Virus record (IMG/VR): IMGVR_UViG_2718218135_000001
Coordinates: 32,001-96,000 of that record
Strand: one strand, 5' to 3'
DNA: 64,000 nt
Source of the DNA: a virus
Taxonomy: Duplodnaviria > Heunggongvirae > Uroviricota > Caudoviricetes
This document shows, piece after piece, positions 73-44,793 of this stretch (position 1 is the stretch's first letter; the number at the start of each line of letters is the position of its first letter). The notes under the pieces are model-generated. The model saw only the letters and a list, made by a program, of their open reading frames with translations, was not told where the DNA came from and did not search any database. Made by a program: the position numbers and the translations under genes.

Positions 73-86
73 AAACAAGTTGTTTT
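73..86. promoter_or_regulatory. AAACAA-N2-TTGTTT operator-like palindrome (copy 1)
   Basis: aaacaagttgtttt; same palindrome recurs at least 10 times in the window; here it precedes the A+C-rich non-coding tract. Confidence 0.45.
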
Positions 87-3837: not shown

Positions 3838-4320
3838 ATGAATTTTATCGCTACTGTAAACGCACCCGCACATGGCAATATCGCTGTAACGTTCTCTGAC
3901 ATTGAAAAACGAGTACTTGGTGCATGGCGCGACAATGAGACGGTAGAACTGTCAGCACAAGAAAAATGCATTATTGCACGCGACATCATTGGCAATCGTC
4001 GTTACTCGCGGGTATTTGAGAAAGCATATGTGGTAAATTCTGGATTCGGAACGTTCGTCTTTCCGGTGCGCTCCGGGCGATTCTGCCAGTCCAAGCTGAT
4101 TGAGTTCGCTACGCAGATTTCTGTCTGGATTAAAACTCAATCGTCGTTCAAATTTTCCGACGATGAAGCAGTATCGCAGGGGATGCGGATCGCCAACAAT
4201 GCAATAAAATGCAAAAACATTACGTATGCCGCTGGCGTTGACACATGGAAACTGTTTTGCGCTAACTTTATGCTGAATGTATACGCAAGCAACCGCATCC
4301 ACATCCTTGATGGCGTGTAA
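3838..4320 (+). CDS. hypothetical protein (160 aa)
   Basis: ORF with AAGGA RBS. Confidence 0.55.
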   Translation: MNFIATVNAPAHGNIAVTFSDIEKRVLGAWRDNETVELSAQEKCIIARDIIGNRRYSRVFEKAYVVNSGFGTFVFPVRSGRFCQSKLIEFATQISVWIKTQSSFKFSDDEAVSQGMRIANNAIKCKNITYAAGVDTWKLFCANFMLNVYASNRIHILDGV

Positions 4321-6189: not shown

Positions 6190-6714
6190 TTAAAACGGTA
6201 AAATCCGTTCGACCCAATCGAAGAGAACTATCGTTCGTCCGCGCTCGCCAACTCTCATTGCGACCTGACAGGCATCAACGCCTAACGAACACCCCTCAAT
6301 TTCACGGCCATCCGCCATGTAGACCCTTATAGACTTTTGCGCCTCATGAGCTTGACGACAAATTTTGAAGAAATCGCGGCGAGATGGCCGATTGTCCACA
6401 TAGTCAGGGTGTACAGTGAGCCTACCTGTAAACATCTTGTCCACTTCGACAGGTGTAATTGTTTCTATGGTGCTAACTCGCTCCAATGGAAGACGAACAC
6501 GATGTTCTTTACTTCCTATAACGGGAGAAAGATCTAGCTTATTGCGTGCGGTAAGCAGACCAATAACGTAAAGACAAAACGTCTGACCATCATCGATCGT
6601 GACCCTTACAGGTATATTCCTTGCCCGTAGGAACTGCAAACTAAACTCCACGTTAGAGTAGTCGCGGGGCCAGACCTCTGCTGGGATGCCGTATGTAATG
6701 TCTGTGATCGTCAT
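6190..6714 (-). CDS. hypothetical protein (174 aa), translationally coupled to upstream gene
   Basis: start overlaps upstream stop (TAATG). Confidence 0.55.
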   Translation of the reverse strand: MTITDITYGIPAEVWPRDYSNVEFSLQFLRARNIPVRVTIDDGQTFCLYVIGLLTARNKLDLSPVIGSKEHRVRLPLERVSTIETITPVEVDKMFTGRLTVHPDYVDNRPSRRDFFKICRQAHEAQKSIRVYMADGREIEGCSLGVDACQVAMRVGERGRTIVLFDWVERILPF

Positions 6715-10109: not shown

Positions 10110-10808
10110 ATGGATTGTATCAAAAATATGGATGTGAAAATTACGATTCTACAGGTGGAAGTCGCGAACCTGCGTCCGAACCCCTGGAATACCAACTCCG
10201 TTGGGGCGCAAAACTTCGAAAAACTGAAAGGTTCCATCGAAAAGTTGGGCTTTTTTAAGCCAATTCTGGCGCGAGAGCTGGACGGCGGCATTTTTGAGAT
10301 TCTCGGTGGCGAACATCGCTGGCGTGCCGCGATGGAGCAGGGCATTTCAACGGTTCCCGTAATGTCGGTGGGAAAAATTAACGACCTGGTGGCCAAACAG
10401 ATGTCTCTCGTCGATAACGAGCGCTACGGCGAAGACGATCAGATCGCTTTGCAACGCTTAATCGAAGAAATTCAGTCTGAAATTGACTACCGGTTGTCTG
10501 ATATCGCCCCGTATGACGACGAAATGGCGGCAACGCTCGCCAAAGCATCCGTTATCGATCTTGAAGCGCTGGAAGCGCTCTCCCGCGGCGATGACGAGCC
10601 GGTCGGTGAGGACAAACGCGAGAAAATCGAGCGAGTCGGTGCTGAACACCAGACGATGCGCTTCAAGGTGACGTTCGATGCGTCAGATCGCGTCGCCGAT
10701 ACCATCAAAACCATCATCAAAGAGCAGGGAATCAATACCGGTAACGAAATGGAGAACGCCGGGGAAGCCTTGGTGTGGCTGGTCGACTACTACAAGGAGC
10801 GTATGTAA
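10110..10808 (+). CDS. ParB-like nuclease-domain protein 1
   Basis: ParB/Srx N-domain signature LRPNPWN ... GGEHRWRAA; start choice uncertain. Confidence 0.7.
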   Translation: MDCIKNMDVKITILQVEVANLRPNPWNTNSVGAQNFEKLKGSIEKLGFFKPILARELDGGIFEILGGEHRWRAAMEQGISTVPVMSVGKINDLVAKQMSLVDNERYGEDDQIALQRLIEEIQSEIDYRLSDIAPYDDEMAATLAKASVIDLEALEALSRGDDEPVGEDKREKIERVGAEHQTMRFKVTFDASDRVADTIKTIIKEQGINTGNEMENAGEALVWLVDYYKERM

Positions 10809-11476
10809 TGACCAAGAACTTTGAAATCGTATATCGAAACCCGGCAGAACTTATCCCGTATGAGATGAACGCCAAAAAACATGACGAACAGCAGATCCAC
10901 GACCTGGCGGCTGCCATCAAAAAGCGCGGTTTTGACCAGCCGATCACGGTCGACAAGCACGACGTCATCATTACTGGTCACGGTCGTCGCGAGGCGGCAC
11001 TTCTGGCTGGTCTGGAGCGTGTGCCTGTCATCGTTCGCGACGATCTGAGCGAAGAAGAAGTGAAGGCGAAGCGTCTTGAAGACAACCGCCTGGCCAGTAT
11101 TGACTACGACGCCATCAAATTGCAGCAGGAACTGGAGTCCCTGGTGCTGGGTGACGTTGAGGTCTTTGGTTTTGAAGAGCGAGAGCTGAACGTGCTTGTT
11201 GGCAGCATGACCGAAGAGATGGAAACAGGCTCTCTGGTGCTCGATCTGGGTGAAGAGACGGAACGCCAGAAAGAAGAGCACACCGAGATCAGTCGCGAAG
11301 TGGCCTCTGAAGAAGTCCGAGTCATCGACGTATTGGGCTTTAAAACGCTCCCTGCTGGCTCTGCCATTGTGGTTGGGGATTTGCTTGCCCACATGGAAGA
11401 AATTACGGGAGAAAGCGGGGTAGACGCTTTCGTGGCGTATGCGGAGAAAGTTTCCTCTGGGGAGCTGGCTGCATGA
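10808..11476 (+). CDS. ParB-like nuclease-domain protein 2
   Basis: HGRREAA arginine motif; start overlaps upstream stop (TAATG). Confidence 0.7.
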   Translation: MTKNFEIVYRNPAELIPYEMNAKKHDEQQIHDLAAAIKKRGFDQPITVDKHDVIITGHGRREAALLAGLERVPVIVRDDLSEEEVKAKRLEDNRLASIDYDAIKLQQELESLVLGDVEVFGFEERELNVLVGSMTEEMETGSLVLDLGEETERQKEEHTEISREVASEEVRVIDVLGFKTLPAGSAIVVGDLLAHMEEITGESGVDAFVAYAEKVSSGELAA

Positions 11477-12111
11477 GCAAATACACCATCAACGTATCGT
11501 TTCAGACCCGCGTGAACAAAACCACGCGCACGCTGGAGATTGCCGAATCGTTCGGTCTTGGCCTGGACGAAAAAGAGTGGACGCTTTACGACAATCTGGA
11601 GCTGGAAGTGAAGCAGGGCGATGTGGTGTACATCACCGGCCAATCCGGTTCCGGTAAATCCGTTGTGCTGCGCGAGCTGCAACGCCAGATGAAGGATGAA
11701 GGGCTTTCTGTAGCCTCCATCGATGACTTTGCCTTCGACAATGAGGTTAACGTCATTGACCAGCTGGGCAAAACCACCAGCGAAGCGCTGGGGCTGCTGT
11801 CTATGGCCGGATTGAATGACGCCTATCTCTTTGTGCGTAAGCCATTCGAGATGTCTGACGGCCAGAAATACCGTCTCAAGATCGCCAAGCTGATCGAGTC
11901 CGGCGCGAAAGTCTGGGCTGCCGACGAATTTGGCGCTGTTCTCGACCGTGTAACCGCCCAGGTTGTGGCGTCGAACCTCCAGCGTGCCGCCCGTAAGGTT
12001 GGTGCGACGGTAATGGTGGCGACGACCCACGAAGACCTGAAGAACGCGCTGCGCCCGGATATGCAGATCACCAAGCACTACAAAGAACGCGTGAAGGTGG
12101 AATATGCCTGA
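11473..12111 (+). CDS. compact ABC-type ATPase (212 aa)
   Basis: Walker A GQSGSGKS, signature-like SDGQKYRL, Walker B VWAADEF, H-loop TTHE; ATGA overlap with upstream gene. Confidence 0.7.
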   Translation: MSKYTINVSFQTRVNKTTRTLEIAESFGLGLDEKEWTLYDNLELEVKQGDVVYITGQSGSGKSVVLRELQRQMKDEGLSVASIDDFAFDNEVNVIDQLGKTTSEALGLLSMAGLNDAYLFVRKPFEMSDGQKYRLKIAKLIESGAKVWAADEFGAVLDRVTAQVVASNLQRAARKVGATVMVATTHEDLKNALRPDMQITKHYKERVKVEYA

Positions 12112-13673: not shown

Positions 13674-13687
13674 AAACAAGTTGTTTA
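13674..13687. promoter_or_regulatory. AAACAA-N2-TTGTTT operator-like palindrome
   Basis: aaacaagttgttta, 40 bp upstream of the TerS start, followed by hairpin gagcgca-agga-tgcgctc. Confidence 0.5.
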
Positions 13688-30835: not shown

Positions 30836-33800
30836 ATGGAACAGTTCAAGAAGAAAAAGTTACCGCTGTTTATTGCCGGTGCGGGTGGTAAAAAAAGTAG
30901 CAAAAGCTCCAGCCGTACACCGGTTGAAGCCGACGATACCGTAAATTCTCGTGCAATGGCCGCTATCCTCGATCTTCTTGGGGAAGGGGTAATTGGCGGC
31001 TTAGTAAATGGCGCAAGATCTATTTTTATCGACGATCTGCCGATTGTAAATGAAGACGGTTCCTCCAACTTCAGCGGAATCACATGGGATTTTCGCGACG
31101 GTTCACAAGACCAGACTCCAATGTCTGGCTTTGATTTCGTTGAAACGCCTAAATCCGTCAATATCCAGTTAAAAAAAACGCATTATGTAACGGTTTCAAT
31201 CGATAACGATGAAGCTGATCGGGTTCGTGTCATCATGAAGTTTCCTTCTTTGCGAAGCATAGATAAAAAAACTGGTGACACGAACGGTACGACTGTTGAG
31301 TACAAGTTCCAGATAGCAAATGGCGACTCAACATTTGTAGATGTGGTCGCGGAAGGTGAAAAAAGCGTTGGCATTAAGCTAACAGCAAAGAAGACCGGCG
31401 TTTATTACCGTAGCTATGAGCTGAAGCTGCCTAAGCCTGGACGAGCATACAAGGTTCGTGTAGTCCGTATTACCGATGATAACAGTAGCCAGTATCTCTA
31501 TAACGATACATGGGTGGATTCAATCGGGGAAATTGTCGATACACCGATGAACTATCCAAACTCTGTTTTGGTTGGATTGAAGGTAAACTCTGAGCAATTC
31601 GGCAGCACCATGCCATCTCGCTCTTATCTGGTGCGTGGCCTAAAAATTCGAGTACCTTCAAACTATAACGAGTCCAGTAACACTTACGCTGGGGTATGGG
31701 ATGGCACTTTTAAGCTGTTGTCTTCTTCGAACCCCGCGTGGATTCTCTTTGATTTGCTGACCAATGCTCGATATGGCCTTGGTCAGTATGTGTCGGAATC
31801 TATGATTGACCTTGGCCAGTTGTACCAGATTGGTCGATATTGTGACGAAGAGGTCGATGATGGCTTTGGTGGCAAAGAGAAACGCTTTGCAATCAATACG
31901 CAGATCACCAGTCGACAGGACGCATACCGGCTAATTCAGGATATTGCTGGAGCATTCCGCGGCATGGTGTTTTGGGCTGGTGGGATGGTTAACATCATGC
32001 AGGATAGCCCATCAGATCCGGTAATGATGTTTACCAACTCTAACGTCAAAGATGGATTGTTTACCTATAAAGGTTCTGCGCGTAAAGATCGCCCATCCGT
32101 TGCGCTCGTAACCTACAACAACAAGGAGGACGGTTATAAGCAAAACATCGAGTACGTTGAAGATCAGGACGCAATGCGCCGTTATGGTGAGCGTAAGACA
32201 GAAGTCGTAGCATTTGGCTGTACAAGCCGAGGGCAGGCTCACCGAGTTGGTTTGTGGCTTTTGTATACCGCCAGAATGGAGTCGGATGTAATTACATTTA
32301 CTGCCGGCTTAGACGCGTCATTTTTGATGCCTGGTGAAACCGTTCTGATTCAGAACAAATATCGCGCAGGCAAACGTAACTCAGGTCGAATTGTGGCGTT
32401 TACCAAAAACAGCGTCACACTCGATGCGCCTGTGTCGTTAGCCAAAGGCGGCTGCTTTATTCGAATACTGAATCAGGAAGGCAAAATCGTTGAACGCGAT
32501 GCTCTTGAAACTGGCGAAAATATAACAAAAGTTACGTTTTCAAAAGCCCTGTCGTCAGCGGAAACGCCTGTTTTGAACGGTGTCTGGACAATTACAGAAC
32601 CAGATCTCGAACCTATGCGCGTTCGCATCGTTAACATCGCTCAGGGGGAAACGTCGGGTAGCTTTGACATCACCGCTGTTGAAAACAATCCGTCTAAATA
32701 TGAGGCGATCGACAATGGTGCAACGCTTATCCCGCAGAATACGACGGTATTGGACCCGACTTACTCCAAGCCGTCTAATTTGCAAATCACTGAAGGGACT
32801 TATCTCTCAAGCCCGGGCAACCTGTCAGTAAAACTGACTGCAACATGGGAAGGGAAATCTCCAGAGTATTGGATCAGTTGGCGACGTTCTGATGCAAACA
32901 ATGTATCGAACTGGCAATCGACGCGTGTAACCGAAGAGCAATACGAAATCGTTAATGTCGCGGAGAATGGACGCTACGACTTCCAACTGTATGCGGTTTC
33001 ATTCAACGGTAAAAAAACAGAAATTATCAGCACCGTCTACAAAGTTCAGGGGACGATGACGCCGCCGGATGCACCGACTGCACTGACGGCCGTGGGCGAC
33101 TACCGCAACGTGATTCTGAATTGGGTTAACCCGGACTCAATCGACCTCGATCACATCAACGTGTATGCATCCCGGACCAACAACCTGGACACTGCAAAAC
33201 TAATTGCCGAAGCAGCCAGTACCACCTTTACGCACGCAGGTCTTGGAGATAGCGAAACTTGGTTCTATTGGGTTCGTGCAGCAAACAAACGCGGAATGTT
33301 GAGCCAGCCGAACTCCAATTTGGGCACTGAGGCGATGACGAAAGATGTTCTGTCTTTCCTGACCGGGAAGATCACTTCTTCGGAATTGGGGCAGGAACTG
33401 CTTGAGGAAATCGACACCAAAGCCTCGCAGGAAGCCGTCGACGCAATCAACAAGCAGATGGAAGAAAGCCTGAAAAGCCTTGATGACAAATTTACTGAGA
33501 CCGATCAACGGATTGAAGAAGCCCAAAACGTTCTTAGAACGGAAGTTTCTAATACTGCCAGCAAGGTGGAAGAGGCTCTTAAGGAGGTTGAAAACTCAAA
33601 TGCCGCATTAATTCAGTTGAAGGAAACTGTTTCAGAGCAGGACAAGGTCGTTGCTGGAGCGGTTGAGGCCGCGAATGCAGCACTGGACAATTCATCGGCT
33701 TTAGTTGCGGAGGAACGTGAGGCACGAGTCGAAGGCGACTTGGCGAACGCGAAAGAAATCGAGGCAATGAAGTCAACTGTAGATAGCAGTTTGGCCACCA

Positions 33801-40780: not shown

Positions 40781-41302
40781 TTATTCTTCGAACAATTTTT
40801 CGATAGATTTTGTTGGATAGAACAAAGAACGATCGTTGTTACCAACCAGCTGGATAAAGCCCAAACTTTTATAAAACGCCCTAGCTTTATCGTTCAACGC
40901 CTCAACGAAAAGCCCATGAATGCCTACCGCAAGAGATGCATTGTACACAACACGCATTGCGTGAGTTACAAGCATTGAGCCAAACCCCTGACCTTGAAGA
41001 GATTTGTCCAAAGCCAGTCTGCCTAAAGTGATACTTGGGACATTCCGATAAGGCACTTTCTTTTGCTGACTCTTTGAAGGTAAGGTTTCTTTCTCAAAGC
41101 AGCTGCCTGACAAAGTGTAATAACCTAATACCTTTGGTATTTCTTCTTTAGTGCAAAGCACATAAGCGCGAAGAATTTTTCCTTCATGCTGTCTTTTTAA
41201 GTGGTTGGTCAAAAATGCGTTTAGTGACTCTTCGCCGCAATCAAAACCGTTTAGATCATAATCTTTCTCTCCAGAGAAAATCTCGATCGTCGTATTGCTC
41301 AC
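40781..41302 (-). CDS. GNAT-family acetyltransferase toxin (TacT-like)
   Basis: GNAT motifs; paired with upstream small antitoxin. Confidence 0.7.
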   Translation of the reverse strand: MSNTTIEIFSGEKDYDLNGFDCGEESLNAFLTNHLKRQHEGKILRAYVLCTKEEIPKVLGYYTLSGSCFEKETLPSKSQQKKVPYRNVPSITLGRLALDKSLQGQGFGSMLVTHAMRVVYNASLAVGIHGLFVEALNDKARAFYKSLGFIQLVGNNDRSLFYPTKSIEKLFEE

Positions 41303-41309
41303 GAGTAAA

Positions 41310-41579
41310 TTACTCCATGCTTTTCAGACGATTGGCAGCTCGTTTCAGCTTGTCGTTCGGTGCCGGAGGATTGCTTATAGCATCCATAACCAGATTCCAG
41401 GACTCTTCACTTAGAACCAGTCTACGGTGTTGCTCTATCACCTTCACGGCACGTTCGGATGCACTGCTAACCATGAACTGGGTAATGCTCTGGTTAGACA
41501 TTGCGGCAGCTTCCTCGATGATGCTTTTATCGTCATCGGTTAATCTCAAATCGATGCGCTGCTTTTTCAGTGCGGACAT
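41310..41579 (-). CDS. RHH antitoxin (TacA/DUF1778-like)
   Basis: 89 aa upstream partner of the GNAT toxin. Confidence 0.7.
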   Translation of the reverse strand: MSALKKQRIDLRLTDDDKSIIEEAAAMSNQSITQFMVSSASERAVKVIEQHRRLVLSEESWNLVMDAISNPPAPNDKLKRAANRLKSME

Positions 41580-41849
41580 GTGTACCCCCTGATGGCCGGT
41601 GATGTAGGAAGGCCATCATTGCTCTCTATTTAAACTGAGTTTTCGACTCAAAGGTTATTTAACTGGGCTATAGCCCATTGCGTATGTGTCATCAAATTGT
41701 GTACGGCAATTTACCGTACTCGTAATATAGAGGTGATTGTCACTTTTTTCAACAGACAAATGAAAACAGTTACTAGCAATAGGCAATAACAACCTACTAA
41801 ATAACCTTTACACCGCAGCCGTAGGCATTTAGGCTATATCGCATATAAG

Positions 41850-41863
41850 AAAACAAGTTGTTT
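41850..41863. promoter_or_regulatory. AAACAA-N2-TTGTTT operator-like palindrome
   Basis: aaaacaagttgttt, 36 bp upstream of parA-like ATG. Confidence 0.5.
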
Positions 41864-41898
41864 CATACGACAATAATTCACGCAAAGGAAACTCACCA

Positions 41899-42564
41899 AT
41901 GACCAAGATCATTGTGGTTGGCGGCACAAAAGGCGGCCCAGGCAAATCTACCGTTGCCCAGCAAATTGCGGTATGTCTCAAAGTTAAAAAGAAAAAGAAG
42001 GTTCACGTCACCGATATCGATATCCAGCGCACCACGACCAGCTGGTGTGAAGACCGTCGCCAGAACGAAGATCTTGAACTGATCCCGTTCGCTTATGTGC
42101 AGGACGACATCGTCAAACATCTTAAATCGCTTCAGGGGCGAACTGATTATGTAGTGGTAGATGCTGGTGGCTTTGACTCCGAAATTCAGCGTCTGGCGAT
42201 GCTTATGGCTGATGTAATCATCATCCCGCTGCGCCCTAAACGTCGTGATTTGAAATCTCTGCGTGATATCGACCCGATTATCGACAACGTTCGCAATGTG
42301 AACGAGAAAGTTAAGATCCGCGCGGTAATAAACCAGTGTCCGTCATTGCCTTCCCAGGTATCACGTATTCTGGCCGCGAAGGAAATTGTCGAAACTTTCG
42401 GCATCGAGGCTGCGCCGGTCAATCTGTACAACCGTAACGTTTATGACGATGCGGAAGAGGCAGGTCGTTCTATCTTTGAAATGACTGGCGCTGAACGCGA
42501 TAAGAAGGCAGAAGCCGAGTTCGAAGAGTTTGTAGATTACATCTTGAGTCTGGAGGAAGAATAA
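41899..42564 (+). CDS. parA: ParA-family partition ATPase (small, type Ib-like)
   Basis: deviant Walker A GGTKGGPGKST; 221 aa. Confidence 0.85.
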   Translation: MTKIIVVGGTKGGPGKSTVAQQIAVCLKVKKKKKVHVTDIDIQRTTTSWCEDRRQNEDLELIPFAYVQDDIVKHLKSLQGRTDYVVVDAGGFDSEIQRLAMLMADVIIIPLRPKRRDLKSLRDIDPIIDNVRNVNEKVKIRAVINQCPSLPSQVSRILAAKEIVETFGIEAAPVNLYNRNVYDDAEEAGRSIFEMTGAERDKKAEAEFEEFVDYILSLEEE

Positions 42565-42923
42565 TGTCCATGAGAATGGGAGACCTTGCAAAGCGCAATG
42601 AGCCTAAAGAACCGGCCAAAAGCAGCACTCCACTGCGCCAGCCAGTCAGACCGCAGGGGCGTCCGACTCGTGGCAAAGAGAAAATTAAAAGTCGCACAAT
42701 GTCACTGGAGGACGAATACTTCGAACTGCTGGAAATGATGAAGTTCATCCCTCGTTTCGAGAAGTTCACCCGTTCTGACGTGATTCGCGCCGCCATTTTC
42801 CATCTGGCAGAGAAGTCACCGCAGGAAATCGAGGACATCGTGAAACTTAACGAGGCGATCACAGCTGCCGATGTCACGATGCGTACCGATGAAATCAAAC
42901 GAGAGTTGATGAAGAAAGGTTAA
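42564..42923 (+). CDS. small partition/centromere-binding protein (ParG-like)
   Basis: 119 aa, basic N-terminus, ATGA overlap with parA-like gene. Confidence 0.55.
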   Translation: MSMRMGDLAKRNEPKEPAKSSTPLRQPVRPQGRPTRGKEKIKSRTMSLEDEYFELLEMMKFIPRFEKFTRSDVIRAAIFHLAEKSPQEIEDIVKLNEAITAADVTMRTDEIKRELMKKG

Positions 42924-42975
42924 AAATTATGCATTGGCGCAATGTACGCGCCAATGCATAAGTACAGTGTCAGCT

Positions 42976-43743
42976 TTATGCCGCGCTAACACTATGTTCA
43001 TTCCTAACCACCCCAACCTTCACAAAAGGGCTGCCGTAGCTTGGTGGCTTCTTGATTAATTTGCCTACATACAGTTTTCTAATATGCTCATCGGCTATTC
43101 TGCCAACAAATTCATAACGTTTTGTGTCGGGGCCAAGAGCTATATCCCTTGTAAAGTACTGCTGAGAACCGGCTTTGACCCAGCATTCAATCTGATAAAC
43201 TTCCATTATCAGGCCCCCATATGTAGCGTAGGCATATTTGAGATTCTCGTCTCTTGGAACCTTTGCCCATACGCCACGCGTAGCTTCATATAATGCCAGA
43301 GCGGACATTCCTGACTTGTAGGTGCTGTTTAGCAGGAAGGCAAGACCGGCGTGCTCAGGAGCAATTTCAGTTTCCTCTTGCAGCACTAAGTGATGGTAGG
43401 CGTCCAGTGATATTCTGCCCATCATGGAACCACTTCCTCGTACCTTATTCGTAAGCTCTCCGACACCCATAAGGTCGATGCATGTCGCCTCAACAAGTTT
43501 GGCTGTGGTTTCATCCATACCATGACGAAGAATATCTATGCCTAATTTTTTATTAGCCAAAAGTTCTTTGATCCGCATGGATTTGGGAGAGTCATCGGGA
43601 TACTTGATGTGATCGAGACAACGAGTCGATTTGCCTTTTCCTATGTAAAACGGTCTTTTCATCTTGTCTTCTGTATCATAGAGACAGTAAACATAGTATT
43701 TAGCCTTATCCAATGATCTCGCGTATACCGATAAATCGTCCAT
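42976..43743 (-). CDS. GIY-YIG nuclease-domain protein
   Basis: N-terminal YYVYCLYD ... RPFYIGKGKSTRCLDH. Confidence 0.6.
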   Translation of the reverse strand: MDDLSVYARSLDKAKYYVYCLYDTEDKMKRPFYIGKGKSTRCLDHIKYPDDSPKSMRIKELLANKKLGIDILRHGMDETTAKLVEATCIDLMGVGELTNKVRGSGSMMGRISLDAYHHLVLQEETEIAPEHAGLAFLLNSTYKSGMSALALYEATRGVWAKVPRDENLKYAYATYGGLIMEVYQIECWVKAGSQQYFTRDIALGPDTKRYEFVGRIADEHIRKLYVGKLIKKPPSYGSPFVKVGVVRNEHSVSAA

Positions 43744-44777: not shown

Positions 44778-44793
44778 GAAAACAAATTGTTTA
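44778..44793. promoter_or_regulatory. AAACAA-N2-TTGTTT operator-like palindrome
   Basis: gaaaacaaattgttta, 19 bp upstream of helicase ATG. Confidence 0.5.

Follow-up and report, generated by a model that had tools for sequence, protein, structure and literature searches.

In the ParF-ParG-parH/OF partition system of TP228, a small deviant-Walker-A ATPase is paired with a small partner, encoded downstream, that has a flexible N-terminal tail and a ribbon-helix-helix (RHH) core. The centromere/operator consists of 8 plus 12 ACTC boxes, and the operator OF, next to the promoter, itself has centromere activity (PMC3130281). Here we analyze a related locus in a tailed virus (Caudoviricetes), in a window of 64,000 nucleotides comprising positions 32,001 to 96,000 of IMG/VR virus record IMGVR_UViG_2718218135_000001; all coordinates below are those of the window. 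By homology, positions 41793-42923 are a type Ib-like (small ParA) plasmid-partition cassette of an SSU5-type phage-plasmid. As in TP228, whose ATPase is the best solved relative, the cassette encodes a small deviant-Walker-A ATPase and, directly downstream, a small partner whose N-terminal tail is predicted to be flexible and whose core is probably of the RHH type, and its candidate cis-acting DNA lies directly upstream and overlaps the promoter. Unlike ParG, however, the partner is longer, carries two extra C-terminal helices, and has no detectable sequence or profile similarity to its TP228 counterpart, and in place of an array of 8-20 tetramer boxes there is a conserved cis block of just 106 bp. 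We put the probability that the cassette operates by a local mechanism, as type Ib systems of the TP228 ParF/ParG class do, at about 0.6.

The 1.7 kb around the locus are 100% identical to Escherichia fergusonii plasmid pRHB41-C15_2 and share 88-94% identity with phages SSU5, Cyrano, CMS-2020a, and PhiR41_1; with Klebsiella phage-plasmids the figure is ~82%. These identities, combined with the surrounding tail, lysis, helicase, ligase, and polymerase genes, assign the window to the SSU5/pHCM2-type phage-plasmids, of which a related member, Cyrano, is maintained at ~5.5 copies per chromosome (PMC9928086). In every context examined, the genome is that of an SSU5-like phage, and the par genes are flanked by its lysis cassette on one side and its replicative helicase on the other. 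Its orthologues are SSU5_033 (“ParA-like partition protein”) and SSU5_034 (“hypothetical protein”) in SSU5 and CYRAN_28 and CYRAN_29 in Cyrano. As regards its ParA, the locus is already annotated in public records; in the literature searched, no centromere, operator, or experiment is described for these orthologues, and no experimental work was found on the low-copy maintenance of SSU5/pHCM2-type phage-plasmids. New here are the limits of the cassette, the recognition of the 119-aa partner as the probable adaptor, belonging to a narrow and unannotated family, and the transfer of a previously proposed centromere to a neighboring TacAT module.

The parA gene (41899-42564, plus strand) encodes a ParF-like protein of 221 aa, within the ~190-230 aa of type Ib ATPases, in which residues 11-18, KGGPGKST, form a deviant Walker A motif with the signature lysine; the motif is unchanged across six lineages. 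Matches to P-loop domains (AAA_31, MipZ, CbiA, and VirC1 in Pfam) begin at residue 1-4, and the protein has no N-terminal extension and no helix-turn-helix (HTH) or regulatory domain. Its best solved relatives are ParF (PDB 4dzz) and TP228 ParA in the ParA-ParB complex (5u1g), both matched over residues 3-200 with E ~5e-12. The protein also matches PHROG 164, “ParA-like partition protein” (E 9e-53), and, over its full length, the NCBIfam equivalog NF041546 ParA_partition (E 3.7e-34), the latter with 118 bits, which is under the curated cut-off of 180. The features of type Ia ParABS systems are not found, given a ParA of only 221 aa and an adjoining partner in which Pfam detects no ParB_N domain. 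Collectively, these comparisons identify the 221-aa protein as a type Ib-like ParA.

The partner gene (42564-42923, plus strand) follows immediately. The stop codon of parA and the start codon of the partner overlap as TAATG, with a ribosome-binding site, GGAGGA, 8-13 nt before the partner start, and the two genes are predicted to be translationally coupled. The same arrangement, with the partner directly 3' of the ParA gene, recurs in every context examined, in nine lineages. An earlier note on this DNA, made from the sequence alone, had proposed a type Ib-like partition locus composed of a 221-aa ParA and a 119-aa partner. Both open reading frames (ORFs) are present, and the classification is borne out by the small deviant-Walker-A ParA with its ParF/TP228 relatives, by the coupled small partner, and by the low-copy phage-plasmid setting.

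The partner belongs to PHROG 5111, to which no function is assigned. No Pfam family matched it, either alone or across 14 homologues, and neither sequence nor profile searches returned a significant PDB relative. The family is narrow, comprising 25 clusters at 90% identity and, among 1.84 billion proteins, 18 representatives at 50% identity; the orthologues in SSU5 and Cyrano are 95-96% identical. In the public records the SSU5 partner has a truncated start and CYRAN_29 is labeled “RelE/ParE putative toxin,” a label we reject since the protein has no RelE/ParE Pfam match and its gene always follows parA. Transcription of CYRAN_29 in the Cyrano lysogen is 9-fold over local background (PMC9928086). 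An alignment of homologues revealed a conserved N-terminal peptide, MGDLAK(R/K), followed by a variable linker, a conserved basic segment of the form P-x-R-x-P-x-R-P-Q-G-R-P-T-R-G-K (here RPQGRPTRGK), and a core, I-K-S-R-T-M-S-L-E-D-E-(Y/F)...F-T-R-S-D-V-I-R-A-A-I, that is retained down to ~35% identity. In an AlphaFold2 (AF2) model of the monomer, residues 1-25 have a predicted local distance difference test score (pLDDT) <50 and helices span residues 48-60, 70-84, 86-98, and 101-118; a monomer model of the core by itself contains the same two helices behind an extended segment. This strand-helix-helix pattern, together with weak matches to the RHH family aCcr1 (E 2.4e-4) and to pRN1 ORF56, also an RHH protein (E 1.1), suggests that the core, at approximately residues 41-85, is probably an RHH domain with a C-terminal helical extension. 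The 119-aa protein is thus the probable partition adaptor, a candidate for binding the centromere.

In upstream alignments of 5, then 7, then 45 distinct elements, homology upstream of parA begins abruptly at ~41793, and the DNA further left differs between elements. On the right, homology stops at the stop codon of the partner. These sharp limits imply that the cassette is exchanged as a unit of ~1.13 kb that includes just 106 bp of upstream DNA (41793-41898, plus strand, with a left recombination boundary at ~41793). The lowest nucleotide diversity of the cassette is found in this block. Among 69 distinct modules it is 0.02 at the noncoding positions 41817-41861 versus 0.05-0.23 in the genes, and it climbs to 0.5-0.6 just past the partner stop codon. 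Positions 41819-41840, which include the spacer between the −35 and −10 elements, are invariant in the close group.

The predicted parA promoter, on the plus strand, comprises a −35 element, TTTACA (41807-41812), a 17-nt spacer, and a −10 element, TAGGCT (41830-41835). Because a generic promoter scan did not call it, we infer this promoter from conservation: its geometry, a −35-like hexamer, a 17-nt spacer, and TAnnnT, is kept in nine lineages despite diverging spacer sequence, and TAGGCT stands at the same place in the window, in SSU5, in pJN2-26, and in the lineages L009, L006, and L016. As a σ70 hexamer TAGGCT is poor, but it has been kept, in contrast to the GATAAT found at other promoters of this phage. 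The −10 element overlaps the second of two TAGGC boxes whose starts are 8 bp apart (TAGGCATTTAGGC, 41822-41834, plus strand), which constitute a par-specific candidate site for binding of the partner. The window and SSU5 each contain a single TAGGC-N3-TAGGC, which is invariant in the close group; in L009 the two boxes are displaced by 8 bp, and L006 and L016 each have a single box. Downstream, 15 nt past the −10 element and at approximately +7 to +20 of the transcript, lies a 13-bp palindrome, AAACAAGTTGTTT (41851-41863, plus strand).

These features can be combined into a model of the TP228 type. The σ70 promoter TTTACA, 17 nt, TAGGCT would drive the two-gene, translationally coupled operon, and the ParF-like ATPase would bind the nucleoid as an ATP dimer, as other ParA proteins do. 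The core of the partner, probably an RHH dimer, would bind the invariant 45-bp promoter core at 41819-41863, contacting the TAGGC boxes over the −10 element and perhaps the adjoining 13-bp palindrome, and this binding would serve to repress the operon as well as to mark the plasmid. The disordered N-terminal tail of the partner, with MGDLAKR, would stimulate ATP hydrolysis by ParA, and the outcome would be ratchet-type segregation of the ~107-kb plasmid.

Several results weigh against this model. The cis-acting elements of the 106-bp block amount to just two TAGGC boxes and one palindrome, with no iterated centromere array, while the RHH systems that have been studied rely on 8-20 boxes (PMC3130281) or on a minimum of four contiguous heptads (PMC9499535). 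The TAGGC boxes are, moreover, absent in the lineages L098, L101, and L010. Tandem Repeats Finder (TRF) found no tandem repeat array in the window, and periodic tetramer boxes with periods of 7-11 in the window's block did not go beyond shuffled sequences (p >= 0.18). As to the partner, Foldseek searches of its models against the PDB, performed twice, gave no match, nor did an hhalign comparison with a ParG sequence, and with no Pfam match and models of the monomer only, the RHH fold is a prediction rather than an established fact. Because the 13-bp palindrome is common to many unrelated promoters, part of the conservation of the promoter core may serve another regulator. Finally, we found no experiments on this par system in the literature searched.

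Other places for a centromere were considered and rejected. An array of parH-like boxes (TAGG/TAAG/CAAG at 8-bp spacing), seen by eye in the sequence, had no statistical support. A centromere hidden in coding DNA was sought by a sliding-window analysis of diversity over the 69 modules, in which no coding stretch was as conserved as the promoter core; the two lowest coding dips, at 42161-42190 and 42725-42769, overlap conserved segments of the proteins. A search for tandem repeats in the rest of the window and in SSU5 returned just the repA iterons of SSU5 and trivial repeats. The window contains an 18-bp tandem repeat, TGTCTACACCAATCAGAC, at 55243-55281 (2.2 copies, 95% match). Downstream of the cassette, a perfect inverted repeat at 42927-42961 forms a hairpin with a 14-bp stem and a T-run on the minus strand. 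This hairpin was likewise set aside, as it is variable cargo and looks like a terminator of the convergent gene that follows: it is shared with PhiR41_1 alone and is absent in SSU5, pJN2-26, and Cyrano. In PhiR41_1 (L005, ~4130-4165) the 7-nt loop is reverse-complemented and the flanks are collinear, so the palindrome appears to have flipped its loop between the two elements. The convergent gene, which encodes a GIY-YIG (LEM-3-like) protein (42976-43743, minus strand), sits after the par operon, and SSU5, pJN2-26, and Cyrano carry different genes at the site of its insertion. Because different elements carry different genes there, the site directly past the partner stop codon can be regarded as a hotspot of cargo exchange.

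On its other side the cassette has a divergent neighbor. The earlier note had described a 280-bp noncoding region upstream of parA in which short palindromes formed a candidate centromere. The noncoding region is present and measures 319 bp (41580-41898), reaching from the start of the divergent tacA to that of parA. The palindrome that it singled out, GGGCTATAGCCC, is also present, 10 bp away from the position given (~41655), at 41665-41676. We regard it as real, since chance would yield ~0.08 perfect 12-bp palindromes per 320 bp and since Cyrano, itself a carrier of TacAT, conserves 10 of its 12 bp. Its distribution, however, follows the TacAT module and not par: of 43 related loci with a TacA homologue, 27 contain GGCTATAGCC, whereas none of the 44 without one does, and GGGCTATAGCCC is absent from SSU5, pJN2-26, and PhiR41_1, all of which are without TacAT. 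The module comprises TacA (41310-41579; Pfam TacA1, E 3.5e-26) and the GNAT toxin TacT (40781-41302; Pfam GNAT families), both on the minus strand and outside the par cassette, and is present in only a subset of SSU5-like elements. Read on the minus strand, GGGCTATAGCCC falls between a predicted promoter (41752-41724) upstream and the tacA start (41579) downstream, and it belongs to TacAT leader/promoter DNA, for which TacA is a candidate binder. The proposed upstream centromere therefore does not hold as described: the DNA with the palindromes tracks TacAT, par homology starts only at ~41793, and the 106-bp block that remains has no iterated array. An operator box, which the note had left unspecified, has a single counterpart adjoining parA with statistical support, namely the palindrome AAACAAGTTGTTT. 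Two further inverted repeats, GATGGCC...GGCCATC just before the tacA ribosome-binding site (41591-41617) and GTACGG-N7-CCGTAC at the predicted tacA transcription start (41701-41719; arms conserved in Cyrano, center variable), are likely to be TacA operators. A perfect 12-nt inverted repeat, AAAGGTTATTTA / TAAATAACCTTT, joins 41650-41661 in the tacA leader to 41798-41809, where the par block begins on the left. This repeat is confined to the lineage of the window and missing from Cyrano, and looks like a local conversion or template-switch event.

The 13-bp palindrome of the parA promoter is one of a family. AAACA-N3-TGTTT occurs eight times in the window (73-85, 1274-1286, 1652-1664, 2143-2155, 13674-13686, 41851-41863, 44780-44792, and 62416-62428) against 0.28 copies expected, and no shuffled sequence contained more than two; no other 5-N3-5 palindrome in the window exceeds two copies. 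There are 14 copies in SSU5 (L014/L015) and 11 in Cyrano. The extended consensus reads GATAAT, ~13 nt, AGAAAACAAnnTGTTTA. Seven of the eight sites in the window lie 11-40 nt upstream of a plus-strand start codon, and behind them are three small early genes, a small-terminase-like gene (13727), parA, a DnaB-like helicase gene (44812), and a CobT-like gene (62448); for the site at 73, no start of a plus-strand ORF was found within 90 nt. The distance to the upstream −10 element, often GATAAT, is fixed at 13-15 nt and the distance to the start codon varies, which ties the palindrome to the promoter, at approximately +7 to +20. The palindrome makes parA part of a genome-wide regulon of phage promoters. 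A role of the parA leader at the level of RNA was rejected, as the structure of the leader does not exceed that of shuffled controls (z = 0.06) and the palindrome shows no self-pairing; there was also no Rfam match for the leader. This lack of structure and of an Rfam match makes a DNA-binding protein the likely reader of the palindrome.

Two further subjects touch on the identity of that reader. The first is a minus-strand gene cluster that includes a full-length homologue of FljA (6190-6714, minus strand; Pfam PF03614, E 6.4e-69). FljA is the Salmonella repressor of phase-1 flagellin, and the homologue could repress host flagellin as a lysogenic-conversion function; as a binder of the palindrome it was discarded, since nothing ties it to the motif. 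The second is an immunity-like region (61477-62335), in which a gene for an XRE-type HTH repressor (61477-61866, minus strand) adjoins the integrase gene and is followed by a 256-bp intergenic region and a divergent gene of 70 aa. The orthologue of this repressor, CYRAN_45, is listed as a lysogen-expressed “putative repressor” in Cyrano. An inverted repeat, TGTACGAACAG...CTGTTCGTACA, is located at 62361-62396, directly ahead of the promoter, itself palindrome-bearing, of the CobT-like gene. Comparison with a lytic, syntenic relative, the Pseudomonas phage nickie, does not discriminate between candidate readers. The palindrome, parA, and the partner are all missing in the 50 kb examined, and so, probably, are the lysogeny genes.

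Two alternatives to the local mechanism differ in the protein that they assign to the palindrome. In one, which we regard as possible without favoring it, the palindrome is an operator or promoter-proximal element of a separate regulator, such as a lysogeny repressor, and is unrelated to partition, so that the partner would contact the TAGGC region from −35 to +5 alone. A master regulator would be expected to act on early, replication, and packaging operons alike, and the palindrome does head all three; in addition, positions 41819-41840 are invariant in the close group independently of it. L016 retains TTTACA, 17 nt, TAGGCT and TATAAGAA and has no palindrome, and an XRE-type repressor with a divergent small gene is encoded, as is, in SSU5, an Ant-type anti-repressor. 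However, it is awkward for a master repressor to have a site on the very operon that the plasmid state requires to be active, the intergenic region adjoining the XRE repressor gene contains no copy of the palindrome, and the two TAGGC boxes left to the partner are fewer than known RHH centromeres have and are not present in several lineages. In the other alternative, which seems to us unlikely but deserves a hearing, the partner binds AAACA-N3-TGTTT everywhere, so that a single protein would bind the centromere and also repress many phage promoters; the dispersed palindromes would together make up the centromere, with one of them autoregulating parA. The palindrome is the sole repeated element tied to the module and is strongly over-represented, its fixed place 13-15 nt past the −10 element is typical of a repressor site, and it persists before parA in lineages whose partners are ~35-50% identical (invariant where they are only ~50% identical) and in which the predicted β-strand of the partner is nearly invariant. 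The centers of its half-sites are 8 bp apart, which would fit an RHH protein better than an HTH dimer, and the unstructured leader RNA makes a site at the level of DNA more likely. The par operon is on in the lysogen despite the palindrome, as autoregulation predicts, and in L101 the β-strand is altered (SRSLSI) and the palindromes of the parA and helicase promoters are both degenerate. Against this, modules of L016, L017, and L100 have no palindrome downstream of the −10 element though their β-strands are similar, other regulators are encoded (e.g., the XRE-type repressor at 61477-61866), and the palindrome-bearing operons of CYRAN_102 and CYRAN_109 are also weakly expressed in the lysogen. 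RHH proteins are, furthermore, not known to spread from single sites, and dispersed single dimers would give weak partition complexes (PMC9499535). The fuller form of this proposal, in which the partner is an adaptor and a global repressor at single palindromes of its own, the early, the helicase/CobT-like, and the TerS promoters, with a dispersed centromere, is slightly less likely still.

Known systems offer partial parallels to such a dispersed arrangement. In the delta-omega-parS system of pSM19035, an RHH-type adaptor also acts at sites that are promoter operators at several loci, but omega binds 7-10 contiguous heptads, of which at least four are needed (PMC9499535), and here there are single 13-bp palindromes; delta is also a larger ParA, and binding of the palindrome by the partner is putative. 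RK2 KorB acts at 12 dispersed 13-bp OB palindromes, and N15 SopAB has dispersed centromere sites. In both, as here, palindromic sites are scattered over the genome, some of them at promoters, but SopB and KorB are large HTH proteins of the ParB family that work with type Ia ParAs and can spread or bridge, while the ATPase here is type Ib and the adaptor small. The N-terminal peptide of omega may resemble the G-D-L-A-K-R of the partner.

Two other readings would move either the protein or the site away from the 106-bp block and its adjoining genes, and both are far less probable. In the first, the true centromere-binding protein is a ParB_N protein ~31 kb away and the 119-aa protein has some other role. 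Two proteins with only a ParB_N domain are indeed encoded upstream of the terminase genes (10110-10808 and 10775-11476, plus strand), together with an ABC-type ATPase (11473-12111, plus strand); they are labeled “ParB” in the SSU5 and Cyrano records and in typing schemes, and the Cyrano partner carries the toxin label mentioned above. However, the same arrangement with the ABC-type ATPase upstream of the terminase is kept, with shared gene order, in nickie (L107, 3383-6849), where the 50 kb examined contain neither parA nor the partner, and these proteins are therefore unlikely to be the plasmid-partition adaptor. Pfam finds just the N-terminal ParB domain in them, the small ParA is without the N-terminal domain typical of ParAs that are paired with large ParBs, and the 119-aa protein, with no match to RelE/ParE, always follows parA. 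We consider this reading very improbable. A second MinD/ParA-like ATPase, CYRAN_99 (annotated as “Septum site-determining protein MinD”; Cyrano OV696614.1, 89738-90838), is encoded outside the window and is transcribed 9-fold over background in the Cyrano lysogen (PMC9928086). The other reading, to which we give the least credence of all, is the original placement of the centromere in the short palindromes of the distal intergenic DNA, GGGCTATAGCCC and its neighbors. The palindromes are real, GGCTATAGCCCAT resembles GGCTATATCGCAT of the par promoter, and the perfect 12-nt inverted repeat connects this DNA with the par block. Yet that repeat is specific to the lineage of the window, the palindromes fall within the predicted tacA leader, past its minus-strand promoter, and par loci manage without them: none of the 44 without TacA has GGCTATAGCC, and SSU5 has merely 154 bp between the preceding gene and parA.

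A local mechanism of the TP228 type remains our preferred reading. Phage-plasmids of the SSU5/pHCM2 type are frequent in Salmonella Typhi, E. coli, Shigella, and Klebsiella, with resistance genes on some of them. With the control DNA cut down to 106 bp, a small construct becomes usable for experiments on stability, incompatibility, and curing, and the second par gene can be viewed as encoding the likely adaptor in place of a “hypothetical” protein or a “RelE/ParE toxin.” The recurrent palindrome provides a lead to the regulatory circuit of SSU5-type phages, whichever protein binds it. Were the partner itself that protein, the dosage of a partition protein would be coupled to silencing of the lytic program, and the system would represent a type Ib RHH counterpart of KorB or N15 SopB.

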